The notes: generated by a model from the sequence alone, not told the origin. Counted from the stretch's first letter, positions 993 through 17,588 are shown. The stretch is DNA of 20,691 nucleotides from Candidatus Heimdallarchaeota archaeon (GCA_030668875.1 DAOVER010000050.1:1-20691), one strand, 5' to 3'. Numbers and translations: made by a program.

Positions 993-2324
993 ATGCCGAA
1001 CGAAAATAGCAACAATATTGAACAAGATGTTGAGTTATCCAAAGAGCTTGGGCTAAAAGAAGCTCTTGGTATTGCCGTTGGTGCTCTAATTGGAGGGGGA
1101 GTCTTCAGTGTCCTTGGATTAGTCATATATGAATCAGGTCCAGCTGCTTTCTTGGCATTTTTATTAGCTGGTGTAGTTAGTACTTTTACAGCTTACAGTT
1201 ACGTTCATTTAGCACTCAAGCATCCAAGAGCAGGAGGGGCTTTCATCTATGTTCAAGAAGCTTTCAAGAAGAAATGGTTATCAGGTTCTCTTGGTATTCT
1301 CCTTTGGTTTGGTTATAGCTTTTCTGTGGGTCTCTATGCTATGACATTTGGTAGATATTTAGGTGCTGTGTGGCCTCTTTTTGGAGGATATGGTCATAGT
1401 TTTTCTTCAAATCTCTATGCAATGACTTTTGGTAGAGCCTTAAGCGAGGTATCCTTTTTTGGAGAACAATTATTGCCATTTTTTGGAATTACTATTTCTG
1501 CTTTTATTTTTCAGATTCTTAGTATTTTAATTTTCATTGGATTAAATATGATTGGAGTAAAGGAATCCAGCCGAGCTCAAAACATATTAGTTCTCATCAA
1601 AGTTGCAATATTAGTTCTTTATATCATAGTAGGCTTTTTTGCAATTGAAAGTTCAAACTTCGTTCCCTTCTTACCTAAAGGTGCTTTTCCTCTAATCGCA
1701 AGTTCTGTTCTTATTTTTGTTTCAATGGAAGGTTTTGAGATTTTATCCAATTCTGTTGAAGAAATGAAAAATCCAGAAAGAGACCTCAAGCTAGGCATGT
1801 ACATCTCAATAATTATAGTTCTAATCCTATACATCGCTGTAGCAGTAATAACGGTTGGAGTATTAGGTAAAGATGATAATTTGAAGGATATTGGAGAGGT
1901 TATTCTTACATATTCAGCTAGTAAGTTTTTAGGGGTTGCAGGAGCTGGTATCATGGCTTTTGCAGCTATTATCTCCGCAGCTTCAGCTATAAATGCAACA
2001 TTACTAGGGTCTTCTAGACTTTCTTACATGCTTTCTCATGAAAGAATTATACCTAAGGCAATTGCAAAAATCAGCCCAAAAACTCGAGTTCCAATGAGAG
2101 CTATAGCTCTTTCAGGAATAATGAGTATTATCATTGTGTTCCTATTCCAACTAGATGTCGTAGCAATGGTCGCAAGTATAATTTTCATGGCAATTTTTGC
2201 AGCTGTAAATATATCAGCAATAAAACTACTAGAAAAGAAGAAGAAAATTCCTAGCATAATTGGCGTCGTTTTAATAATCATTTACTGGGGGATTTGGATC
2301 TCAAATCTAATAATGACTGGATGA
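993..2324 (+). CDS. APC-family amino acid/polyamine permease
   Basis: About 12 hydrophobic segments; TM1 motif GALIGGGVF, HPRAGGAFIY loop, TM6 FVSMEGFE..SNSVEEMKNPERD. Confidence 0.9.
   Translation: MPNENSNNIEQDVELSKELGLKEALGIAVGALIGGGVFSVLGLVIYESGPAAFLAFLLAGVVSTFTAYSYVHLALKHPRAGGAFIYVQEAFKKKWLSGSLGILLWFGYSFSVGLYAMTFGRYLGAVWPLFGGYGHSFSSNLYAMTFGRALSEVSFFGEQLLPFFGITISAFIFQILSILIFIGLNMIGVKESSRAQNILVLIKVAILVLYIIVGFFAIESSNFVPFLPKGAFPLIASSVLIFVSMEGFEILSNSVEEMKNPERDLKLGMYISIIIVLILYIAVAVITVGVLGKDDNLKDIGEVILTYSASKFLGVAGAGIMAFAAIISAASAINATLLGSSRLSYMLSHERIIPKAIAKISPKTRVPMRAIALSGIMSIIIVFLFQLDVVAMVASIIFMAIFAAVNISAIKLLEKKKKIPSIIGVVLIIIYWGIWISNLIMTG
1311..1472 (+). repeat. In-frame 81-nt (27-aa) tandem duplication inside the permease
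   Basis: GYSFSVGLYAMTFGRYLGAVWPLFGGY (1311-1391) is followed by GHSFSSNLYAMTFGRALSEVSFFGEQL (1392-1472). DNA ctctatgc.atgac.tttggtaga recurs at 1332 and 1413. Confidence 0.85.
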
Positions 2325-3230: not shown

Positions 3231-3845
3231 ATGAATATTGATTACAGAACCCTTCCAGTAATCATTCTAGCAGCTGGAGACTCAAAAAGAATGGGAGAGC
3301 CGAAAGGGCTCCTTAACTATCAAGGCAAACCTTTCCTCGTCCATCAAATCGAACAATTGTCTGAGATAGGTTTATCTGAGATTATCGTTGTACTTGGAAA
3401 AGATTTCAAACTCTACCACGATAAGTTCCCTGAACTTATTGAAGTAGAATTTACAACAAATCCATCTCCTGAGAAAGGACAATTTTCATCCTTACAATGT
3501 GGATTGCAAAAGATACAGTCTAGAGAAGTATCAGGAGTTTTCATTTTTCCAATTGATGTTCCTTGCCCAGACAGAGAAGTATGGGAAGAGCTAGTAAATG
3601 AATTGAGTTTATCAGATAGTGCAGTCACAATCCCTGAATATCAGGGTAAAAAGGGTCATCCTGTTCTTATTTCAAGGGAGTTTATGCAGCATCTTATTTC
3701 CTGTGGATCTGATTCTCGTCTAGATTTCGAAATCTATAAACAAATTGACCTTAAGAAAGCAAAGATTATATCTGTAAATGATAAAAATATTACACGGAAC
3801 CTCAATACACCTGAAGATTGGAAAGAATATGAGGAATTAAAATGA
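3231..3845 (+). CDS. mocA: Molybdenum cofactor cytidylyltransferase (MocA-like nucleotidyltransferase)
   Basis: ILAAG.SKRMG..KGLL, GQFSSLQCGL, GHPVL, NLNTPEDW. Its stop overlaps the xdh start (ATGA at 3842-3845). Confidence 0.8.
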   Translation: MNIDYRTLPVIILAAGDSKRMGEPKGLLNYQGKPFLVHQIEQLSEIGLSEIIVVLGKDFKLYHDKFPELIEVEFTTNPSPEKGQFSSLQCGLQKIQSREVSGVFIFPIDVPCPDREVWEELVNELSLSDSAVTIPEYQGKKGHPVLISREFMQHLISCGSDSRLDFEIYKQIDLKKAKIISVNDKNITRNLNTPEDWKEYEELK

Positions 3846-6475
3846 ATGTAACATTTACTCTCAATGGGAAAGAAACCACTGTTAGTTATGAAGAAGGAAT
3901 GAGTGTCCTTGATTTACTTAGAGAGGTTTGTCATATTAAAAGTTGTAAGGATGGTTGTTCAGGTCAAGGTACTTGTGGAGCTTGTACTGTTTTAATTAAT
4001 GGTAGAGCAATGGTCTCCTGTAGGCAGAAACCAGCATCTATTGAGGGTAAAGAAATAATCACTGTTGAAGGACTTGACAAAATTGAACAAGACATTCTAT
4101 CAAAATCTTTTGTTAAAGAAGGAGCTATACAATGTGGATTTTGTACTCCTGGACTTGTTCTTCGAATTAAATCTTTTCTTGATCAACATCCTACATCTAC
4201 AAGAGAGGAAAAAGCTAAAGCTATAACTGGAAATCTCTGCAGATGTACTGGTTACCAACGAATTCTTGATGCTATGAAAACAGCTGAAGAACATTGGAAT
4301 CCAAAGGACGATGACATATCAGGACCACCTCGAAGAAGCGAATTCTTTGGAGAAAAATATGGTCTAAAAAGGGAGTATGAACCGAAAAAGAATGGAGTAG
4401 GTTCTAATGCTCATCGTTATCGTGGAGTGGATATGGCTCTAGGTAGAAAACCCTATATCGCAGATATGGAAATGGATGAAATGCTTCATGGAGCTTTGTT
4501 GCTAAGTGAGCATCCACGTTCCAAAGTAATCAAAATTGACACATCAAAAGCTAAGGAAGCTTGTGGAGTGATAGAGACATTTACAGCAAAAGATGTACCC
4601 GGGAAACGGATGATTGGTCATATCATACCAGATTGGCCCATTTTTGTTTCTGAAGGTGAATCTACAAGATATGTAGGTGATGTGCTTGCAATGATTGTAG
4701 CTGATTCCATGGTTCATGCCCGAGCAGCTCTTGAGAAAATAAAGGTTGATTATGAAATACTTGAACCAATAATTGATCCAGAAAAAGCTCTATTACCTAC
4801 TACAGAAAAAATACATGAAAAAGGCAATTTACTAGGTCACACATTCTTTGGAAGAGGAGATGTTAAGAGTGCTTTGGAGAAATCCAAATACGTGATAAAA
4901 CAGCGTTTTAAAACTCAACGAATTGAACATGCTTACATGGAAGTAGAAAGTTGCTTAGCATTCCCAACAGAAAAGGGGGTTCATCTATATAGTCAGGGAC
5001 AAGGAGTTCATGAAGATCAAAGACAGATTGCAGAAGCACTCGGATTAAAAAAAGAACTAGTTATCGTTGAACTTGTTTCTAATGGTGGTGCTTTTGGTGG
5101 AAAGGAGGATCTTACATGTCAAGCACAGACAGCTATGGCTTCCATGATTTTGAAGAAACCTGTAAAAACAGTTCTTACAAGAGAACAGTCTCTTCTCATG
5201 AGCGTTAAGAGACACCCAATGACTATGGATTATGAAGTAGGAGCAGATGAAAATGGAAAGCTAACAGCTGTAAAACTCCGTTTAATAGCTGATTCAGGAG
5301 CTTATGCATCTGTTGGAGCAAAAGTTGCAGAACGCGCAGCAGGACATTGTTGTGGGCCATACTTCGTTCCTAATGTTGATGTAGATGCAAAAGCTGTTTA
5401 TACAAATAATCCCGCTTGTGGAGCGATGCGAGGTTTCGGAGTCAATCAAACCTCCTTTGCAATTGAAACATGTCTTAATATGATTGTCGAGAAGATGAAG
5501 AAAGATGGGATTAAAATTGATGATTATGATATAAGAGAAAAAAATATTCTTAGAGAAGGTCAAAGGTTTGCAACAGGTCAAAAGATGACAAAGACCATCA
5601 ATGGAATGCAACAATGTCTAGATGCTGTTAAAGACATCTATAAGAATTCTAAAGATCCAATTGGGATAGCTTGTGGGATAAAAAATACAGGAATTGGTAA
5701 CGGTTTGGAGGATACTGGGAGGGTTCTCATAAAAGTCCTTGAAAATGAACAACTTGAAATCTTAACGGGATTTACAGAGATGGGACAAGGATTGTTTACT
5801 GTTCTTACCCAAGTTGTAACAGAAGTTACTGACATCTCCCCCAAACAGATGAATGTCAAATCAATTAGCTATCCAAAAACCAAATGTGGAATGACAACTG
5901 CTTCTAGAGGTACAGCTTTGGATACTATGGCAGCAAAATTTGCAGCAGAAAAACTTGCAATTGCTCTTCAAACAAAGCCCCTAAAAGATTTAGCAGGTAA
6001 AGAGTTCCATGGAGAATATATTAGTAATTTTACAGTCAAACCAGGTACACAAACTGATAATCCTATAACGCATTTAGCGTTCAGTCACGCTGTTCAAATG
6101 GCTATCTTAAATGAAGAAGGTAAAATTACAAAAATGATAGCGGCTCATGATGTTGGAAAAGCTATCAACCCCATGGCATGTGCTGGACAGTTTGAGGGGG
6201 GAATTCACATGGGTCTAGGGCATACACTTTCGGAAGATTTCCCAACAACAAATGGAGTGCCAGACTCACTAAGAATGGGAGATATTCAAATAATCAAAGC
6301 AAAGGATATGCCAGAGGTTGAGGTAATTCTAATAGAAGAACCTGAGGAAGTAGGAGGGTTTGGATCAAAAGGAGTGGGAGAAATTGGTCTTGTACCAACA
6401 GCTGGAGCAGTTGCAGGAGCTCTATACCAATATGATGGTAAATGGCGTTTCGAGCTACCAATAGCAAGAAAATAA
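3842..6475 (+). CDS. xdh: Xanthine-oxidase-family molybdopterin oxidoreductase with fused 2x[2Fe-2S] domain; resembles the selenium-dependent xanthine dehydrogenase family
   Basis: Fe-S motifs CKDGCSGQGTCGAC, QCGFC, NLCRCTGY. Mo-domain motifs GGAFGGKED, GAMRGFG, TTASR, GQFEGG, KGVGE (catalytic Glu). The length (877 aa) and segments such as CGIKNTGIGNGLEDTGR and NPITHLAFS match the single-chain Se-XDH type. Confidence 0.85.
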   Translation: MNVTFTLNGKETTVSYEEGMSVLDLLREVCHIKSCKDGCSGQGTCGACTVLINGRAMVSCRQKPASIEGKEIITVEGLDKIEQDILSKSFVKEGAIQCGFCTPGLVLRIKSFLDQHPTSTREEKAKAITGNLCRCTGYQRILDAMKTAEEHWNPKDDDISGPPRRSEFFGEKYGLKREYEPKKNGVGSNAHRYRGVDMALGRKPYIADMEMDEMLHGALLLSEHPRSKVIKIDTSKAKEACGVIETFTAKDVPGKRMIGHIIPDWPIFVSEGESTRYVGDVLAMIVADSMVHARAALEKIKVDYEILEPIIDPEKALLPTTEKIHEKGNLLGHTFFGRGDVKSALEKSKYVIKQRFKTQRIEHAYMEVESCLAFPTEKGVHLYSQGQGVHEDQRQIAEALGLKKELVIVELVSNGGAFGGKEDLTCQAQTAMASMILKKPVKTVLTREQSLLMSVKRHPMTMDYEVGADENGKLTAVKLRLIADSGAYASVGAKVAERAAGHCCGPYFVPNVDVDAKAVYTNNPACGAMRGFGVNQTSFAIETCLNMIVEKMKKDGIKIDDYDIREKNILREGQRFATGQKMTKTINGMQQCLDAVKDIYKNSKDPIGIACGIKNTGIGNGLEDTGRVLIKVLENEQLEILTGFTEMGQGLFTVLTQVVTEVTDISPKQMNVKSISYPKTKCGMTTASRGTALDTMAAKFAAEKLAIALQTKPLKDLAGKEFHGEYISNFTVKPGTQTDNPITHLAFSHAVQMAILNEEGKITKMIAAHDVGKAINPMACAGQFEGGIHMGLGHTLSEDFPTTNGVPDSLRMGDIQIIKAKDMPEVEVILIEEPEEVGGFGSKGVGEIGLVPTAGAVAGALYQYDGKWRFELPIARK

Positions 6476-11524: not shown

Positions 11525-11738
11525 ATCATGGAAAAATGTTTAAACAGATGCTTTTTTTCTTTCTGAAAGAAGGTGTCAATTAACTATTATCTCTCTATCC
11601 ACAGTTTATTTTCCTTTTATAGTAACTTGCTGCATATTAATACTGCACTAAGGAACAATCCTGGTTCCTGTTTTACCCTTCAAAGCCCGACTGATGTTTT
11701 CAGGATTAGTGATCAGAGCTTCTTTACCACCCTGTTCT
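11525..11738. repeat. 214-bp direct repeat, copy 1: live carbamate kinase 3' end plus 123-bp downstream arm
   Basis: Homologous to 9798-10011 as described for copy 2. Confidence 0.95.
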
Positions 11739-12604
11739 AAAAATTGAACGATAGCTTTAATTTTCGGTTCCATCGAACCTTTGGCAAAGTGAGTTCCTTC
11801 CTCCAGGTACTTTTTTGCCTCAGCAACGGTGAGCTGATCTAACTCCACTTGATCAGGTTTACCAAAATTTAAAGAAACTTTTTCAACAGCAGTTGAAATT
11901 AAAAGCATATCCGCGTTAATTTCATTGGCCAGGAACGCAGATGCAAAATCTTTGTCAATTACCGCTGCAGTCCCCTCTACTCCTTGATCGGTCTCAATAA
12001 CTGGTATTCCTCCACCACCCACAGTAATTGTAACTGTTCCGGAATCAATTAGCGTTTTGATTGCTTCCAATTCCATTATTTCCACAGGTAACGGGGAAGC
12101 TACCACTCGACGCCATCCGCGACCAGCATCTTCAACTACATTCCAACCTAATTCCTCTTTCCTTTTTTCCGCCTCTTTTACTTCCATGAATGTTCCAATA
12201 GGTTTAGCAGGTTTCTGGAAAGCAGGATCATTCGGGTCTACCCGGACTTGGGTAATCACTGTCGCGGCCGGTTTGTTAATTCCCCTTTTTTTAAGCTCAT
12301 TTTGGATATTCTGCTGTAGAGCATAACCGATAGCGCCCTGGCTGTCAGCTCCGCAAACATCAAGGGGTAGTTCATGCATACCTTCCACCTTATGGGCAAT
12401 TTCACTTCGTCGTAAAATGAATCCAACTTGGGGTCCATTGCCATGTCCTATTGCAATATCCCAGCCTTCTTCAATCATATCTACCAGATGAATTGCAGTT
12501 TCCTGGGTAGCTTTGTATTGATCTTGTACAGTTTGATGCTGCTTGGATTTGATGAGTGAGTTTCCACCAATTGCAACAACTGCTACTTTTTTCTGTTTTG
12601 ACAT
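11648..12604 (-). CDS. arcC: Carbamate kinase
   Basis: VVAIGGNSL, HGNGPQVG, KPIG, RRVVASPLP, GGGGIPV, AVIDKD, FAKGSMEPKI. Confidence 0.97.
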   Translation of the reverse strand: MSKQKKVAVVAIGGNSLIKSKQHQTVQDQYKATQETAIHLVDMIEEGWDIAIGHGNGPQVGFILRRSEIAHKVEGMHELPLDVCGADSQGAIGYALQQNIQNELKKRGINKPAATVITQVRVDPNDPAFQKPAKPIGTFMEVKEAEKRKEELGWNVVEDAGRGWRRVVASPLPVEIMELEAIKTLIDSGTVTITVGGGGIPVIETDQGVEGTAAVIDKDFASAFLANEINADMLLISTAVEKVSLNFGKPDQVELDQLTVAEAKKYLEEGTHFAKGSMEPKIKAIVQFLEQGGKEALITNPENISRALKGKTGTRIVP

Positions 12605-12613
12605 TTGTATCGC

Positions 12614-13594
12614 CTACCACATTGTTAGCGCCATTATTGCTTTCTGCGCATGCATCCTATTTTCAGCTTGATCAAAAACCACTGATTGGGGACCATCCAT
12701 CACCTGACTGGTGACCTCTACATCGCGATCAGCAGGAAGAGGGTGCATATAAATCGCATCCTTGTCAGCTAGGGCCATTTTATTCGAATCAGTAATCCAA
12801 TGCTTATATTGGTCTTGGATCTTTTTACCTTCTTCTGGATCTTTTGTTGTGAGCAAGGGTCCCCAAGATTTCGCGTAAACGATATCCGCGTCTTTGAAAC
12901 CTTCTTCCATAGAGTCGACAACCTCAAATTTGCTGCCAAATTTGTCAGCTTGTTCTTGGGCTTGTTTCATGATTTCCGGCATCAACTTAAATTCAGGTGG
13001 ATGTGCTAGTGTGACGTCCAACCCAAACCGAGGCATCTGTAGAATCAAAGACTGTGGGACAGAAATTGGTTTCAGGTACGAGGAAGCATACGCCCAACTA
13101 ACTACCATCTTCTTTCCTCTTAAATCCCGACCTTTTTTCTCCATTATAGTCATTATATCAGCCAGACATTGGTGAGGATGATAAATATCGCACTGCATAT
13201 TTAAAACAGGTGAGCGTGAGGCTGATGCCACGTTGTTTATGTACTTGTTTCCTATTCCCCAATCACAATGTCGAATGGCAATACCATCATAATACCTTCC
13301 AAGGATTTCTCCTAATTCTTTTTCTGTGTCTCCATGAGAAACCTGTGTTGTGCGGCTCTCCAAAAATGTGGCTTGTCCTCCCAGCTGCGCCATTCCTGAC
13401 TCAAAAGAAGCCCGAGTACGTGTGCTGGAGAAGAAGAATAGCATACAGAGAGTTTTATCCAGAAGCAAAGCGTGTCTTTCACCCAGTGCTCGTTTTTTCT
13501 TAAGATCCCAGGCTACTTCTAAGACAGTTTCCACTTCTTCTTTTGTAAAATCTAGGTCGCCGATTAAGTCACGACCTCGTAAATCAGATATCAT
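12614..13594 (-). CDS. Transcarbamylase of the YgeW/N-acetylornithine carbamoyltransferase class (not a canonical OTCase)
   Basis: Carbamoyl-phosphate motifs SSTRTR and HPHQ; SWAYASSYLKPISVPQS loop and YAKSWG resemble YgeW/AOTCase; MHPLPADR. The OTCase SMG motif is absent. Confidence 0.8.
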   Translation of the reverse strand: MISDLRGRDLIGDLDFTKEEVETVLEVAWDLKKKRALGERHALLLDKTLCMLFFFSSTRTRASFESGMAQLGGQATFLESRTTQVSHGDTEKELGEILGRYYDGIAIRHCDWGIGNKYINNVASASRSPVLNMQCDIYHPHQCLADIMTIMEKKGRDLRGKKMVVSWAYASSYLKPISVPQSLILQMPRFGLDVTLAHPPEFKLMPEIMKQAQEQADKFGSKFEVVDSMEEGFKDADIVYAKSWGPLLTTKDPEEGKKIQDQYKHWITDSNKMALADKDAIYMHPLPADRDVEVTSQVMDGPQSVVFDQAENRMHAQKAIMALTMW

Positions 13595-13603
13595 TATGAT
13601 CTC

Positions 13604-14557
13604 CTACTCCTCTGCACCTAAAACCAGAGCTAGAAGGGCCATGCGCATTACAACGCCGTTGTGACCTTCCTTCCAGTAACGCGCCCATCGGGTCTGATCC
13701 ACATCGGGAGGAATTTCATCCATTCTGGGTAAGGAGTGGAGTAATACTGCGTCTGATTTTGCTTTGGTTTCTAAAAGTTCTTTGGTGATTTGGAATTCGG
13801 GGGGGGTTAGTGCAACGTCACCATCTCTTTCATCACGTGATTTGGTGTAGTCAGGCTGGACTACCGGCTCAACTAGGATCACATCAGCATCTGCGATAAC
13901 TGTGCGAACATCATCACCTTCGGTAAAGTTCAGACCGTTACGTTTGAAATCTTCCCGGTATTCATCAGGAAGTTCCATGTCTTTTGGTGATATGAAAGTG
14001 ATTGGGCAGTCGAATTGTGTTAAAGCATGACCAAGGGAGTGCATGGTACGCATTCTCATATCACCTACAGCTACCCACTTTAATCCGTCTAAGTGACCTT
14101 TTTCTTTATAAATAGTATAGAGATCAGTGAGGATTTGTGTAGGATGCTCTCCCCAACCATCTCCACCATTAATAATAGGGACACTTACCCATTTAGCAGC
14201 TTCTTTGGGAGCGCCTTTCTGGAAATGCCTCATAACGATGACGTCTCCGTAATTTTCGAGCATCTTAAAGGTGTCCTTGATGGATTCCATATAGAAGTCA
14301 CCTGCGCGGGTCATTTTAGCGTCAGAAAATCCTGTCACCTTACCACCCAATCGAAGCATGGCTGTTTCGTGGGCTAAACGAGTCCTGGTTGAAGGCTGGT
14401 AAAAAGCAGTTACCATTACTTTTTCTTTCAATAAATCTACATTTTTTCTATTGCGAGCTATTGGGGCTAATTTATCTGCAACCTCAAATATTCGCTCAAA
14501 TTCATGGCGTTCAAAATCCTTTAATGATATAATGTCACGCCCTACAAAACTTCTCAT
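13604..14557 (-). CDS. Aspartate-carbamoyltransferase-like transcarbamylase with altered acceptor site
   Basis: FYQPSTRTRL, MRH, NGGDGWGEHPTQ, RTMHSL, HSLPRMDEI. SD AAGGAG lies upstream, and 9-nt gaps separate it from the next two genes. Confidence 0.8.
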   Translation of the reverse strand: MRSFVGRDIISLKDFERHEFERIFEVADKLAPIARNRKNVDLLKEKVMVTAFYQPSTRTRLAHETAMLRLGGKVTGFSDAKMTRAGDFYMESIKDTFKMLENYGDVIVMRHFQKGAPKEAAKWVSVPIINGGDGWGEHPTQILTDLYTIYKEKGHLDGLKWVAVGDMRMRTMHSLGHALTQFDCPITFISPKDMELPDEYREDFKRNGLNFTEGDDVRTVIADADVILVEPVVQPDYTKSRDERDGDVALTPPEFQITKELLETKAKSDAVLLHSLPRMDEIPPDVDQTRWARYWKEGHNGVVMRMALLALVLGAEE

Positions 14558-14830: not shown

Positions 14831-15364
14831 TCAGGTTTCGATTACATCACCAACATATCTAAATTGTTTAGGCCAGAACAGGAATGCTTTTGACCGATCA
14901 TAATCTTTAGCTAAATGAGCAGTTACTACTTCACCAACAAACCACGTATGCGTTCCCCCTAAATCAAGAGTATGAACAACCTTACATTCTAGATTAACAG
15001 GACATTCTTTTATTAGATATGAACTTATTTTTGAAGCTTTTACAGGTGTAAGACCTGTTGCTTTAAATTTATCTTCAACATCTCTACCGGAAATTTTTCC
15101 GATATGCTTCACATCATCTATAAGTTCAGTTGTGGGGATATTTATTGAATAGTCCTTTACTTCTTTTATCAGTTCAAATGAATATCTTTTGGGAACAATT
15201 CCAATCATAATTAAAGGAGGATTATCAAATGAAACCATACTAATTGCAGCTATAGTTATAAGATTTTTACCAATACACCCAATAACAATAGGAAAGCCTG
15301 GTAAAGATAAAATACCCTTCTTACCTGAAACAATTTCTTTGTTAGAATTATCCATTTCATTCAT
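14831..15364 (-). CDS. Flavin reductase family protein (DIM6/NTAB)
   Basis: SMVSFDNPPLIMIGI, IKECPVNLECKV, GTHTWFVGEV. Confidence 0.88.
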   Translation of the reverse strand: MNEMDNSNKEIVSGKKGILSLPGFPIVIGCIGKNLITIAAISMVSFDNPPLIMIGIVPKRYSFELIKEVKDYSINIPTTELIDDVKHIGKISGRDVEDKFKATGLTPVKASKISSYLIKECPVNLECKVVHTLDLGGTHTWFVGEVVTAHLAKDYDRSKAFLFWPKQFRYVGDVIET

Positions 15365-16256: not shown

Positions 16257-17588
16257 ATGAGAGGTGATTTAAAGTATTCCTTGGGTCTTGTAAAAGGATC
16301 AGTATACCGTAATGGACAATTTTATCTCGAAGACATATATATATCTGATCAAAAAATCACCAAAATTATTCCTTCTGGAAGAAACCTTCCATGCAAAAAA
16401 ATTGTAGACTGTTCAAATAAACTAATTTTACCTGGTTTTATTGATCCCCATGTTCATATCAACCTTGATTTGGGTGAATTCAAATCAAGTGATAATTATG
16501 AAAGTGCTTCTACAGCGGCTGCTTTTGGTGGAATTACTACTTTCATCGATTTCCTTGAACCGATTATTACTGTGGATAAATTCAATGAAAAACTTCAGCA
16601 GAAACATAAAGAAGCTGAAACATCATTTATAGACTATAGTTTCCATACAACTGTTGGTAATTTCAAAGATGATGTAGAAAAACTCGTAAAATTATCGATT
16701 GATAATGGTATTCCTTCAATCAAATTATTTACAACATATTCTGAATCAAATCGCAGATGCACATATGAAAAAATCAGAGAGTTTATTGAAATTTCAAGTT
16801 TAACTGACAGTCTTATCCTAATACATACTGAAAATGATGAAATAATAATAAATTCAAATGTAGAAGACCAAATAGCTGTATATGAAAGCTCAAGACCTGC
16901 TAATGCAGAAATCGAAGAAATAGATAAATTAGCAAAAATCGTTTCAGAACTTAAAGGAAGAATCTACTTCGTACATGTCACTTGTGGGTCTTCAATAGAT
17001 CTTCTAAAAGAGAAATACTCTGAGCTTCTGCAACATAATATTTTCATTGAAAGCTGTCCCCAGTATTTCTACCTTACCAAAGAAGTTTACTCTACTGAAA
17101 ATGGGAACTTATTCCTTCTTGCGCCTCCTCTCCGTTCTATAGATGAGCAAGAAAAACTGAAGAAAAATATAGGAATAATAAACACTATTGGAACAGATCA
17201 TGCTCCTTTTACAAAAGAAGAGAAATTAAGATACTCAAAACCGAGCCAAATCCCTAAAGGGCTTGGAAGTTTGGAATATAGTTTTTCACTTATGTATAAT
17301 CTATTTGGGGAAAGTATTATTCCGAAATATACAATCAATCCTGCTGTCATCCACAGTTTATTCCCTAGGAAAGGGATTATCCAAGAAGGATCAGATGCAG
17401 ATTTAGTCATTTTTGACCCAAAGAAGCAATTAATTATTGATTCAGGACATTCTAAATCTGATTATAGTCCTTATGAAGGATCAAAAATAACTGGAGTAGT
17501 TGATTCAACAATACTTAGAGGAGAGTTCCTCGTAGAGAATGGCAAATTTGTTGCATCAAAAAGAGGAATGTTTATCAAAAGAAACTGA
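16257..17588 (+). CDS. Cyclic amidohydrolase, dihydropyrimidinase/D-hydantoinase-like
   Basis: PGFIDPHVH, AAFGGITTFIDF, SIKLFTTY (carboxylated Lys), HTEN, VHVT, ESCPQY, PPLR, GTDHAPF, GSDADLVIFDP, SDYSPYEG. Confidence 0.8.
   Translation: MRGDLKYSLGLVKGSVYRNGQFYLEDIYISDQKITKIIPSGRNLPCKKIVDCSNKLILPGFIDPHVHINLDLGEFKSSDNYESASTAAAFGGITTFIDFLEPIITVDKFNEKLQQKHKEAETSFIDYSFHTTVGNFKDDVEKLVKLSIDNGIPSIKLFTTYSESNRRCTYEKIREFIEISSLTDSLILIHTENDEIIINSNVEDQIAVYESSRPANAEIEEIDKLAKIVSELKGRIYFVHVTCGSSIDLLKEKYSELLQHNIFIESCPQYFYLTKEVYSTENGNLFLLAPPLRSIDEQEKLKKNIGIINTIGTDHAPFTKEEKLRYSKPSQIPKGLGSLEYSFSLMYNLFGESIIPKYTINPAVIHSLFPRKGIIQEGSDADLVIFDPKKQLIIDSGHSKSDYSPYEGSKITGVVDSTILRGEFLVENGKFVASKRGMFIKRN

Follow-up and report, generated by a model that had tools for sequence, protein, structure and literature searches.

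A pseudo-aspartate transcarbamylase family in catabolic operons of Chloroflexota and a Heimdall-group archaeon

What could be the reaction of an aspartate transcarbamylase (ATCase)-like protein that seems to lack the site for the side chain of aspartate, and that is encoded in one operon with a second transcarbamylase and a carbamate kinase? The question is raised by a gene of Candidatus Heimdallarchaeota archaeon (GCA_030668875.1 DAOVER010000050.1:1-20691). The window that was analysed is the whole contig of 20,691 nt, i.e. contig C61 of an assembly with 99 contigs and 3.23 Mb. The gene, here called the pseudo-ATCase gene, is listed with its neighbours in Table 1; an earlier note on the sequence had presented its product as a candidate new transcarbamylase.

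We propose that the protein is a catabolic pseudo-ATCase that, together with a compact YgeW-like partner and carbamate kinase, probably strips both ureido groups from a diureidopropionate-type intermediate by phosphorolysis. The direct observations behind this proposal are the pattern of active-site residues, the operon, the co-occurrence figures, and a separate pyrBI pair in the same genome.

Active-site residues, fold and family

The protein was aligned using MAFFT with E. coli PyrB (NC_000913), the PyrB of its own genome, and about 100 representatives (50% identity, exhaustive search). A second MAFFT alignment comprised 187 members of the family and 56 canonical ATCases, and hhalign was run independently. 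The motifs STRT (residues 56-59), R110-H111, HPTQ (138-141), RTMHSL (170-175), which includes the equivalent of R167, and HSLP (274-277) are all present, as had been claimed for the carbamoyl-phosphate site and R167. In E. coli numbering, the carbamoyl-phosphate and catalytic residues S52, T53, R54, T55, R105, H134, Q137, R167, P268, and R296 are invariant in the 187 family members as well as in the canonical ATCases.

The positions around the side chain of aspartate present a different picture. The protein has the strings TRAGDFYME (83-91) and ILVEPVVQPDY (227-237), so that the S80/K84 loop of ATCase is replaced by T-R-A-G-D-F-Y, and R229-x-Q231-x-E233-R234 is replaced throughout the family by P-V-V-Q-P-D. 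MAFFT and hhalign agree on the changes R229 to Pro231, Q231 to Val233, R234 to Asp236, S80 to Arg84, and K84 to Tyr89. The family members invariably have Arg84, Pro231, Pro235, Asp236, and, within the 80s loop, a D-F-Y insert; Val233 is found in 94% of them, and Tyr89 is the residue that aligns with K84. The replacements at aspartate-site positions are thus 94-100% invariant (n=187), while S80, R229, Q231, E233, and R234 are conserved at 96-100% in the canonical ATCases (n=56), and therefore they are not due to chance. Additional family-specific changes are E50Q, S58A, F59H, L140T, G166M, Y226L, T228E, P266S (resulting in HSLP), F286W, and Q288E.

Several readings of the earlier note could be compared with these alignments. 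The replacement of the S80/K84 loop by TRAGDFYME had been described correctly, and the loss of the distal carboxylate site with retention of R167 was upheld by MAFFT, by hhalign, and by the 187-member alignment. The note had also assumed that R229 had changed to valine and that Q231 was kept. R229 is lost in any register, but the alignment had been off by one: R229 corresponds to proline and Q231 to valine, and both programs ruled out the register with a kept Q231. The statement that R229 and K84 bind the side-chain carboxylate of aspartate is correct only in part as far as K84 is concerned. A review of 2015 assigns R167, R229, Q231, and L267 to the second-substrate site of ATCase, but places S80 and K84 under carbamoyl-phosphate binding (PMC4581275). 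Arg84 may have assumed the phosphate contact. Judged by the alignments, the protein has lost the site for the side chain of aspartate but retains an intact carbamoyl-phosphate site and R167.

The predicted structure is that of an ATCase. Pfam found both OTCace_N and OTCace. In the NCBIfam scan, the protein passed the ATCase model TIGR00670 (259 bits, cutoff 237) and failed NF002032 (229 bits, cutoff 263), and it was far below the cutoffs of all remaining ATCase, ornithine transcarbamylase (OTCase), and YgeW models; the YgeW models TIGR03316 and NF005538 gave only 31-33 bits versus cutoffs of 500 and 453, respectively. The closest solved relative is the catalytic chain of the Pyrococcus abyssi ATCase (1ML4; E 6e-71). 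An AlphaFold model, for which 28 relatives were used as input, had a predicted local distance difference test (pLDDT) value of 91.9 and a predicted template modelling (pTM) score of 0.91, and the confidence fell to about 63-65 only in the 80s and 240s loops. The top Foldseek matches of the model were exclusively ATCases, with template modelling (TM) scores of 0.88/0.91 to 1ML4. The ATCase fold can thus be assigned confidently on the basis of the model. The protein shares with PyrB (P. abyssi 1ML4 and E. coli 1D09) the fold, the length, the carbamoyl-phosphate site, R167, and the C-terminal helix, with 36-41% identity and TM scores of about 0.9. In contrast to PyrB, it lacks the RxQxER motif as well as S80/K84, has the D-F-Y insert in the 80s loop and a 240s loop that is about eight residues longer, has an altered E50/R234 closure pair, has no pyrI partner, and is encoded in a catabolic operon.

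Proteins of this kind have been described before. Barba et al. (2013) introduced “pseudo-ATCases”, i.e. ATCase paralogs in which STRT and HPTQ are retained, HPLP is modified, and R-x-Q is missing, and divided them into three subgroups (PMC4016543). Subgroup 1 (HPLA; AIA, AIS or SIA) adjoins carbamate kinase and allantoinase, and its member Rxyl_2847 of Rubrobacter xylanophilus converts allantoate to ureidoglycine and carbamoyl phosphate by phosphorolysis in vitro (PMC4016543). Subgroup 2 (H[ST]LP; G-x-[SC]) was defined from the single genome of Nocardioides sp. JS614, where it adjoins a ygeW homolog, xdhABC, and hyuA, and it was left without an assigned function (PMC4016543). Subgroup 3 (HSLP; V-x-P) was described from marine bacteria, where it is accompanied by a symporter, an asparaginase, and HyuC (PMC4016543). 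The archaeal protein has STRT, HPTQ, and HSLP, lacks R-x-Q, and coexists with a genuine ATCase in the same genome, and thus it belongs to this class. The idea of a new transcarbamylase had to be given up, because ATCase paralogs without R-x-Q were published in 2013 and one of them has been characterised (PMC4016543). Compared by published description, the protein shares with subgroup 2 the kept STRT and HPTQ, the H[ST]LP motif, the lost R-x-Q, a genuine ATCase in the genome, and a similar neighbourhood, but it has P-V-V instead of G-x-[SC] at the R-x-Q position. Subgroup 2 was described before the reductive urate pathway was known, and a full-text literature search found no paper that joins pseudo-ATCases to this pathway.

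A quick IQ-TREE phylogeny, with support from the Shimodaira-Hasegawa-like approximate likelihood ratio test (SH-aLRT), placed the proteins without R229 in a clade of 40 representatives beside the canonical ATCases (support 93), and the family of the archaeal protein formed a tight subclade (support 99). Three sister clades have other contexts, which shows that the R229-less clade is functionally diverse. One context looks biosynthetic, one includes PydA-like and M20 genes, and the third, with an HPLA-type motif, includes a dihydroorotase-like amidohydrolase, a TRAP transporter, and an amino-acid kinase.

Operon context and co-occurrence with the reductive urate pathway

The archaeal genome contains four transcarbamylase genes, i.e. 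the pseudo-ATCase gene, the gene of its YgeW-like partner, pyrB, and argF. Contig C34 encodes a PyrB of 305 amino acids with the canonical motif, directly followed by a PyrI-type regulatory chain; the pair adjoins a gene that resembles orotidine monophosphate decarboxylase by eye only. The OTCase gene is located on contig C96. No pyr genes are found beside the pseudo-ATCase gene, and its neighbours are catabolic. A separate canonical pyrB is thus present, and the pseudo-ATCase gene is not the only pyrB of the genome, a result that would have refuted the reading of the earlier note. It is, in fact, not the pyrB of this genome: a canonical ATCase as its product can be ruled out from the lost motifs, the presence of pyrBI at another locus, and the surrounding operon.

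At least 578 matches to the family were confirmed in species-representative genomes, and 80 loci were kept for the calling of open reading frames (ORFs) and clustering. The gene counts per locus are lower bounds, since at some loci of high GC content the ORF caller chose ORFs on the wrong strand; cluster 11 is an artefact of this kind. The proteins have about 317 amino acids throughout and are 75-93% identical to the archaeal protein in the 80 loci. Nearly all carriers are Chloroflexota (Anaerolineae, Caldilineae, Ardenticatenaceae), in addition to a few metagenome-assembled genomes with other labels, at least one of them Heimdallarchaeaceae. Public sources name these proteins ATCase, an annotation that is almost certainly wrong in hundreds of genomes.

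The core operon consists of genes for a GntR/UTRA regulator, the pseudo-ATCase, the second transcarbamylase, and carbamate kinase. The order of the latter three is the same in the window, with gaps of 9 bp, and in most of the 80 loci, and the second transcarbamylases are 65-92% identical to the archaeal partner. Upstream, an amidohydrolase of the 8-oxoguanine deaminase family (664 bits, cutoff 532) is encoded in 39 of the 80 loci and an adenine deaminase above the cutoff in 34. These two are the most conserved upstream neighbours (representatives L026:5954-7339 and L033:7364-9160), and in some loci the gene of the 8-oxoguanine deaminase family is found twice, with one copy transcribed divergently. 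The conservation of purine deaminases suggests that the operon takes in several purine bases. Downstream, a Bmp-type ABC transporter is found in 28-36 loci, a ThrC-like PALP enzyme in 32, and a second, distant CysK-like PALP enzyme in 18 (representatives of the two PALP enzymes, L100:13497-14765 and L065:15011-16480). Both may be non-orthologous catalysts of a diaminopropionate ammonia-lyase step.

The partner in the window shares 36% identity with E. coli YgeW, scores 210 bits on the YgeW model, and is below the cutoff of this and all other models; OTCase or acetylornithine transcarbamylase (AOTCase) would be its annotation. In the family alignment it has five of the six second-substrate residues of YgeW that are listed in the review (Q160, S200, K203, K270, L331), and it also has the proline-rich knot loop WAYxxSYxKPxSVPQ, which has no counterpart in the pseudo-ATCase, and the KSW motif of YgeW. 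It lacks the terminal helices and the 240s insert of YgeW. The view of the neighbour as YgeW-type is supported by the second-substrate residues and the knot loop, and the protein is best read as a compact YgeW. This would leave the pseudo-ATCase as an additional ureido-cleaving enzyme.

To quantify the co-occurrence with pathway genes, 42 carrier genomes and 14 control genomes were searched using the family score cutoffs. SsnA, a marker of uricolytic clusters according to Li et al., was above the cutoff in 38 of the 42 carriers (40 at E <= 1e-90), while among the 14 controls this was the case only for E. coli. In contrast, no carrier has a true YgeW, and none has a YgeX above the cutoff (one near miss, 488 bits). 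The proposed link of the family with the reductive urate pathway is borne out by the SsnA figures and by loci in which the three genes lie among genes for xanthine dehydrogenase (XDH), SsnA-like enzymes, hydantoinase, and YgfK (L077, L090, L091, L100). Locus L091 combines hydantoinase, XDH, an SsnA-like enzyme, the three genes, both PALP enzymes, and a true YgfK (951 bits, cutoff 835); YgeW, YgeY, and YgeX were not found at this locus. L090, L077, and L100 contain XDH subunits, an SsnA-like enzyme, and a hydantoinase that passes TIGR02033. In the carriers, the two transcarbamylases appear to stand in the places of YgeW and YgeY, and the PALP enzymes in that of YgeX. Li et al. had already noted a Chloroflexota variant of the uricolytic cluster, but counted any PF00185 protein as “YgeW”, so that an additional enzyme of the ATCase type would have gone unnoticed. 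Both the class of enzymes (2013) and the pathway (2025) had thus been published before and are extended here; the two-transcarbamylase module with an ATCase-derived enzyme in the YgeY position is a new variant, which was not found in the searchable literature.

Proposed function and alternative explanations

In E. coli, YgeW and YqeA make ATP from 2,3-diureidopropionate (10.1101/2025.04.24.650524), and YgeY hydrolyses the ureido group that remains after YgeW (10.1101/2025.04.24.650524; PMC12990295). The pathway of E. coli and C. sporogenes thus has one transcarbamylase and one hydrolase and yields one ATP, whereas the module described here has two transcarbamylases. Common to both are an XdhD-type enzyme, SsnA (an SsnA-like protein below the cutoff in the archaeal genome), hydantoinase, carbamate kinase, and the coupling of ureido phosphorolysis to ATP, which is here proposed from the genes. 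The pseudo-ATCase differs from YgeW in being ATCase-derived and unknotted, with 31 bits on the YgeW model.

The pseudo-ATCase would be a catalytically competent transcarbamylase that runs in the catabolic direction. With the compact YgeW-type enzyme and carbamate kinase it would form a three-gene module within the reductive (2,8-dioxopurine) urate pathway, with a 2,3-diureidopropionate-type intermediate as the substrate. The partner would perform the YgeW step, the pseudo-ATCase would take over the step of the E. coli hydrolase YgeY and give a second carbamoyl phosphate, and carbamate kinase would use each carbamoyl phosphate to generate ATP.

Substrate, regiochemistry and reaction direction we infer from the genes and the residue pattern. 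The enzyme would most likely attack the 2-ureido (N-alpha-carbamoyl) group, with the alpha-carboxylate held by the equivalents of R167 and R105. An N-alpha-carbamoyl substrate is favoured because the arginines for the alpha-carboxylate are kept and the cationic residues for a distal carboxylate are replaced. The side chain should be neutral or cationic, because R229, Q231, R234, and K84 have become Pro, Val, Asp, and Tyr, respectively; a ureidomethyl or aminomethyl group would suit. Assuming an ATCase-like geometry, the pattern fits the order of Liu et al., with the YgeW type acting on the 3-ureido group, better than that of Li et al. We tentatively suggest a more specific version, for which the odds appear somewhat less than even: the protein may be a 2,3-diaminopropionate N-alpha-carbamoyltransferase working in reverse, i.e. 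a 3-amino-2-ureidopropionate or 2,3-diureidopropionate phosphorylase, and Chloroflexota, and by transfer the Heimdall-group archaeon, may gain two ATP per urate instead of one. If so, the residue pattern would indicate that YgeW-type enzymes cleave the 3-ureido group, and a disagreement between two studies of 2025 would be settled. Chloroflexota abound in sediments and digesters, and such a variant of anaerobic urate fermentation, which conserves both ureido groups as ATP, would change the energetics of their purine fermentation. The family is also an independent and testable handle on the assignment of ureido groups to the enzymes of the newly described gut uricolytic pathway.

Several observations weigh against the proposed role. 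The two studies of 2025 differ on which ureido group is cleaved by YgeW, and therefore the complementary assignment for the pseudo-ATCase is uncertain. The pathway intermediate has been proposed to be R (D-type), while ATCase uses L-aspartate, and the argument for the 2-ureido group ignores this difference. The one pseudo-ATCase that has been characterised uses allantoate (PMC4016543). Three proteins of the archaeal genome, i.e. the SsnA-like one, the hydantoinase, and the MocA-like one, do not reach their family cutoffs. The anti-correlation with ygeY that the earlier note had anticipated is only partial: a true YgeY is absent from 28 of the 42 carriers, but is present in the other 14, i.e. 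in a third of them, and in 12 of the 80 loci YgeY (455 bits, cutoff 321.5) is encoded directly upstream of the pseudo-ATCase gene with both transcarbamylases retained. A clean anti-correlation is thus ruled out, and the pseudo-ATCase is not simply a replacement of YgeY, because the two share an operon with the second transcarbamylase in these 12 loci. In addition, a relative with 64% identity on a short contig lies between an adenine deaminase and a YgeY at the usual place of the partner.

One alternative follows from the order of Li et al., in which the YgeW type takes the 2-ureido group first; albizziin (2-amino-3-ureidopropionate) would then lose its 3-ureido group to the pseudo-ATCase. In the work of Li et al., albizziin was detected following HyuA and YgeW, and was turned into pyruvate by YgeY and YgeX; if the partner is a YgeW, the pseudo-ATCase would receive the substrate of YgeY. 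However, the carbon beside the ureido nitrogen of albizziin carries no carboxylate, and the carboxylate is found one carbon further away. From the geometry of ATCase, R229/Q231 would be expected to be kept and R167 to be lost, which is the opposite of what the family shows, and thus we regard this substrate as unlikely. Allantoate (diureidoacetate) would be the substrate if the protein were a ureidoglycine carbamoyltransferase like Rxyl_2847, with the second transcarbamylase taking the remaining ureido group. Rxyl_2847 is the only characterised pseudo-ATCase, is encoded beside carbamate kinase and allantoinase, and cleaves allantoate with phosphate or arsenate. Furthermore, the R229-less proteins form one clade, and the amidohydrolase in the window scores 199 bits on allantoinase. 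Like the archaeal protein in the role proposed here, Rxyl_2847 is a catabolic pseudo-ATCase with a carbamate kinase neighbour, and a phosphorylase takes the place of a hydrolase at a purine-derived diureido acid. In contrast to the archaeal protein with HSLP and PVV, Rxyl_2847 has the HPLA and AIA/AIS/SIA motifs of subgroup 1; it acts together with uricase and allantoinase in the oxidative allantoin route, and a second transcarbamylase is lacking. The HPLA-type sister clade has its own, different context, the window contains no above-cutoff allantoinase, and SsnA in 38 of 42 genomes as well as the YgfK or UacX-like, XdhD-type, and hydantoinase neighbours belong to the reductive route. Taken together, an allantoate-cleaving enzyme seems quite unlikely.

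A dihydropyrimidinase-family enzyme in the window and a PydA/PreA-like reductase on contig C7 would also be compatible with a role in the reductive breakdown of pyrimidines, in which the transcarbamylase would act catabolically on N-carbamoyl-beta-alanine or N-carbamoyl-beta-aminoisobutyrate. These compounds have a distal carboxylate and no alpha-carboxylate, a misfit to a protein that has kept R167 and lost R229/Q231, and the neighbours that are conserved belong to purine metabolism (adenine deaminase, the 8-oxoguanine-deaminase-family enzyme, XDH, SsnA), which makes this explanation very improbable. An ordinary or divergent ATCase, or a non-catalytic pseudoenzyme partner, can hardly be reconciled with the data. 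TIGR00670 is passed and public sources label the family ATCase, but NF002032 is failed, R229, Q231, E233, R234, S80, and K84 are lost, a canonical pyrB-pyrI is present elsewhere in the genome, the neighbourhood lacks pyr genes, and the protein branches outside the genuine ATCases. A pseudoenzyme would not be expected to have only invariant carbamoyl-phosphate and catalytic residues and to be under very strong purifying selection.

Probable gene transfer and candidate pathway genes in the archaeal genome

The three genes (11648-14557) form a GC island in the window, with 42.9-43.9% versus 34.7% for the whole window and 30-38% for the flanking genes. The pseudo-ATCase and a homolog from Anaerolineales are 93% identical as proteins, but only about 52% at third codon positions. 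In the quick tree, the archaeal sequence and the Heimdallarchaeaceae-labelled sequence nest among those of Chloroflexota. Purifying selection on the family is very strong, and the results suggest that the three genes were transferred from Chloroflexota long ago and then ameliorated while strong purifying selection acted on them. The module would thus have entered an Asgard archaeon through gene transfer.

Table 1. Features of the window around the pseudo-ATCase gene
Feature	Coordinates	Strand	Length (amino acids)	Remarks
Pseudo-ATCase	13604..14557	minus	317	ATG start, single ORF
Compact YgeW-like knotted transcarbamylase	12614..13594	minus	326	9 bp downstream of the pseudo-ATCase gene; Pfam, NCBIfam, alignment
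Carbamate kinase	11648..12604	minus	318	9 bp downstream of the partner gene; passes TIGR00746 and NF009007
Flavin reductase-like protein	14831..15364	minus	177	upstream of the pseudo-ATCase gene; Pfam, NCBIfam
Hydantoinase/dihydropyrimidinase-family amidohydrolase	16257..17588	plus	443	31% identity to E. coli HyuA; below family cutoff
XdhD-type selenium-dependent molybdenum hydroxylase	3842..6475	plus	877	passes TIGR03311 (865 bits, cutoff 830)
MocA/YgfJ-like molybdenum cofactor cytidylyltransferase	3231..3845	plus		below family cutoff
APC-family permease	993..2324	plus	443	Pfam, NCBIfam

The amidohydrolase of the window is a candidate for the ring-opening enzyme that yields the diureido acid, and the permease is, by its position alone, a possible substrate transporter. 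A profile search of the contigs of the archaeal genome revealed no YgfK, YgeY or YgeX above the cutoff, and none of the four transcarbamylases is a true YgeW (no genome-wide search with the YgeW model was made). A full E. coli-type pathway is thus ruled out by the missing YgfK, YgeY, and YgeX, and a UacX-type variant was found instead. A tight operon on contig C7 (L106:2484-9668) encodes an SsnA-like amidohydrolase, which is the best SsnA match of the genome (342 bits, cutoff 444), a UacX-like reductase, a ThrC-like PALP enzyme that is 42% identical to the Chloroflexota one, and two XDH subunits. The reductase combines a dihydroorotate-dehydrogenase-type domain (PF01180) with two 4Fe-4S motifs (Fer4) and is PydA/UacX-like as assigned by family only; the UacX type stands in for YgfK in C. 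difficile (Li et al.). Contig C58 encodes a homolog of the second PALP enzyme with 63% identity. With the C7 operon, the upstream half of the urate pathway, which had been missing, seems to be encoded on another contig, and a complete variant pathway in the archaeal genome is plausible, with several steps assigned by family matches below the cutoffs.

Transposon-associated genes of the TnpB/Cas12f-like type were identified by family scan near the pathway genes on contig C58 (L107:9831-11057), and an ORF at positions 3-842 of the window resembles such genes by eye only. About ten Chloroflexota loci, most of which also have YgeY, contain an ORF family of 671-697 amino acids after the carbamate kinase gene, for which no match was found in Pfam or NCBIfam. 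The ORF sometimes occurs in two tandem copies, e.g. in L094 (13671-15713 and 15631-17724), and further loci with this family are L044, L059, L061, L074, L079, L082, L085, L092, and L093.

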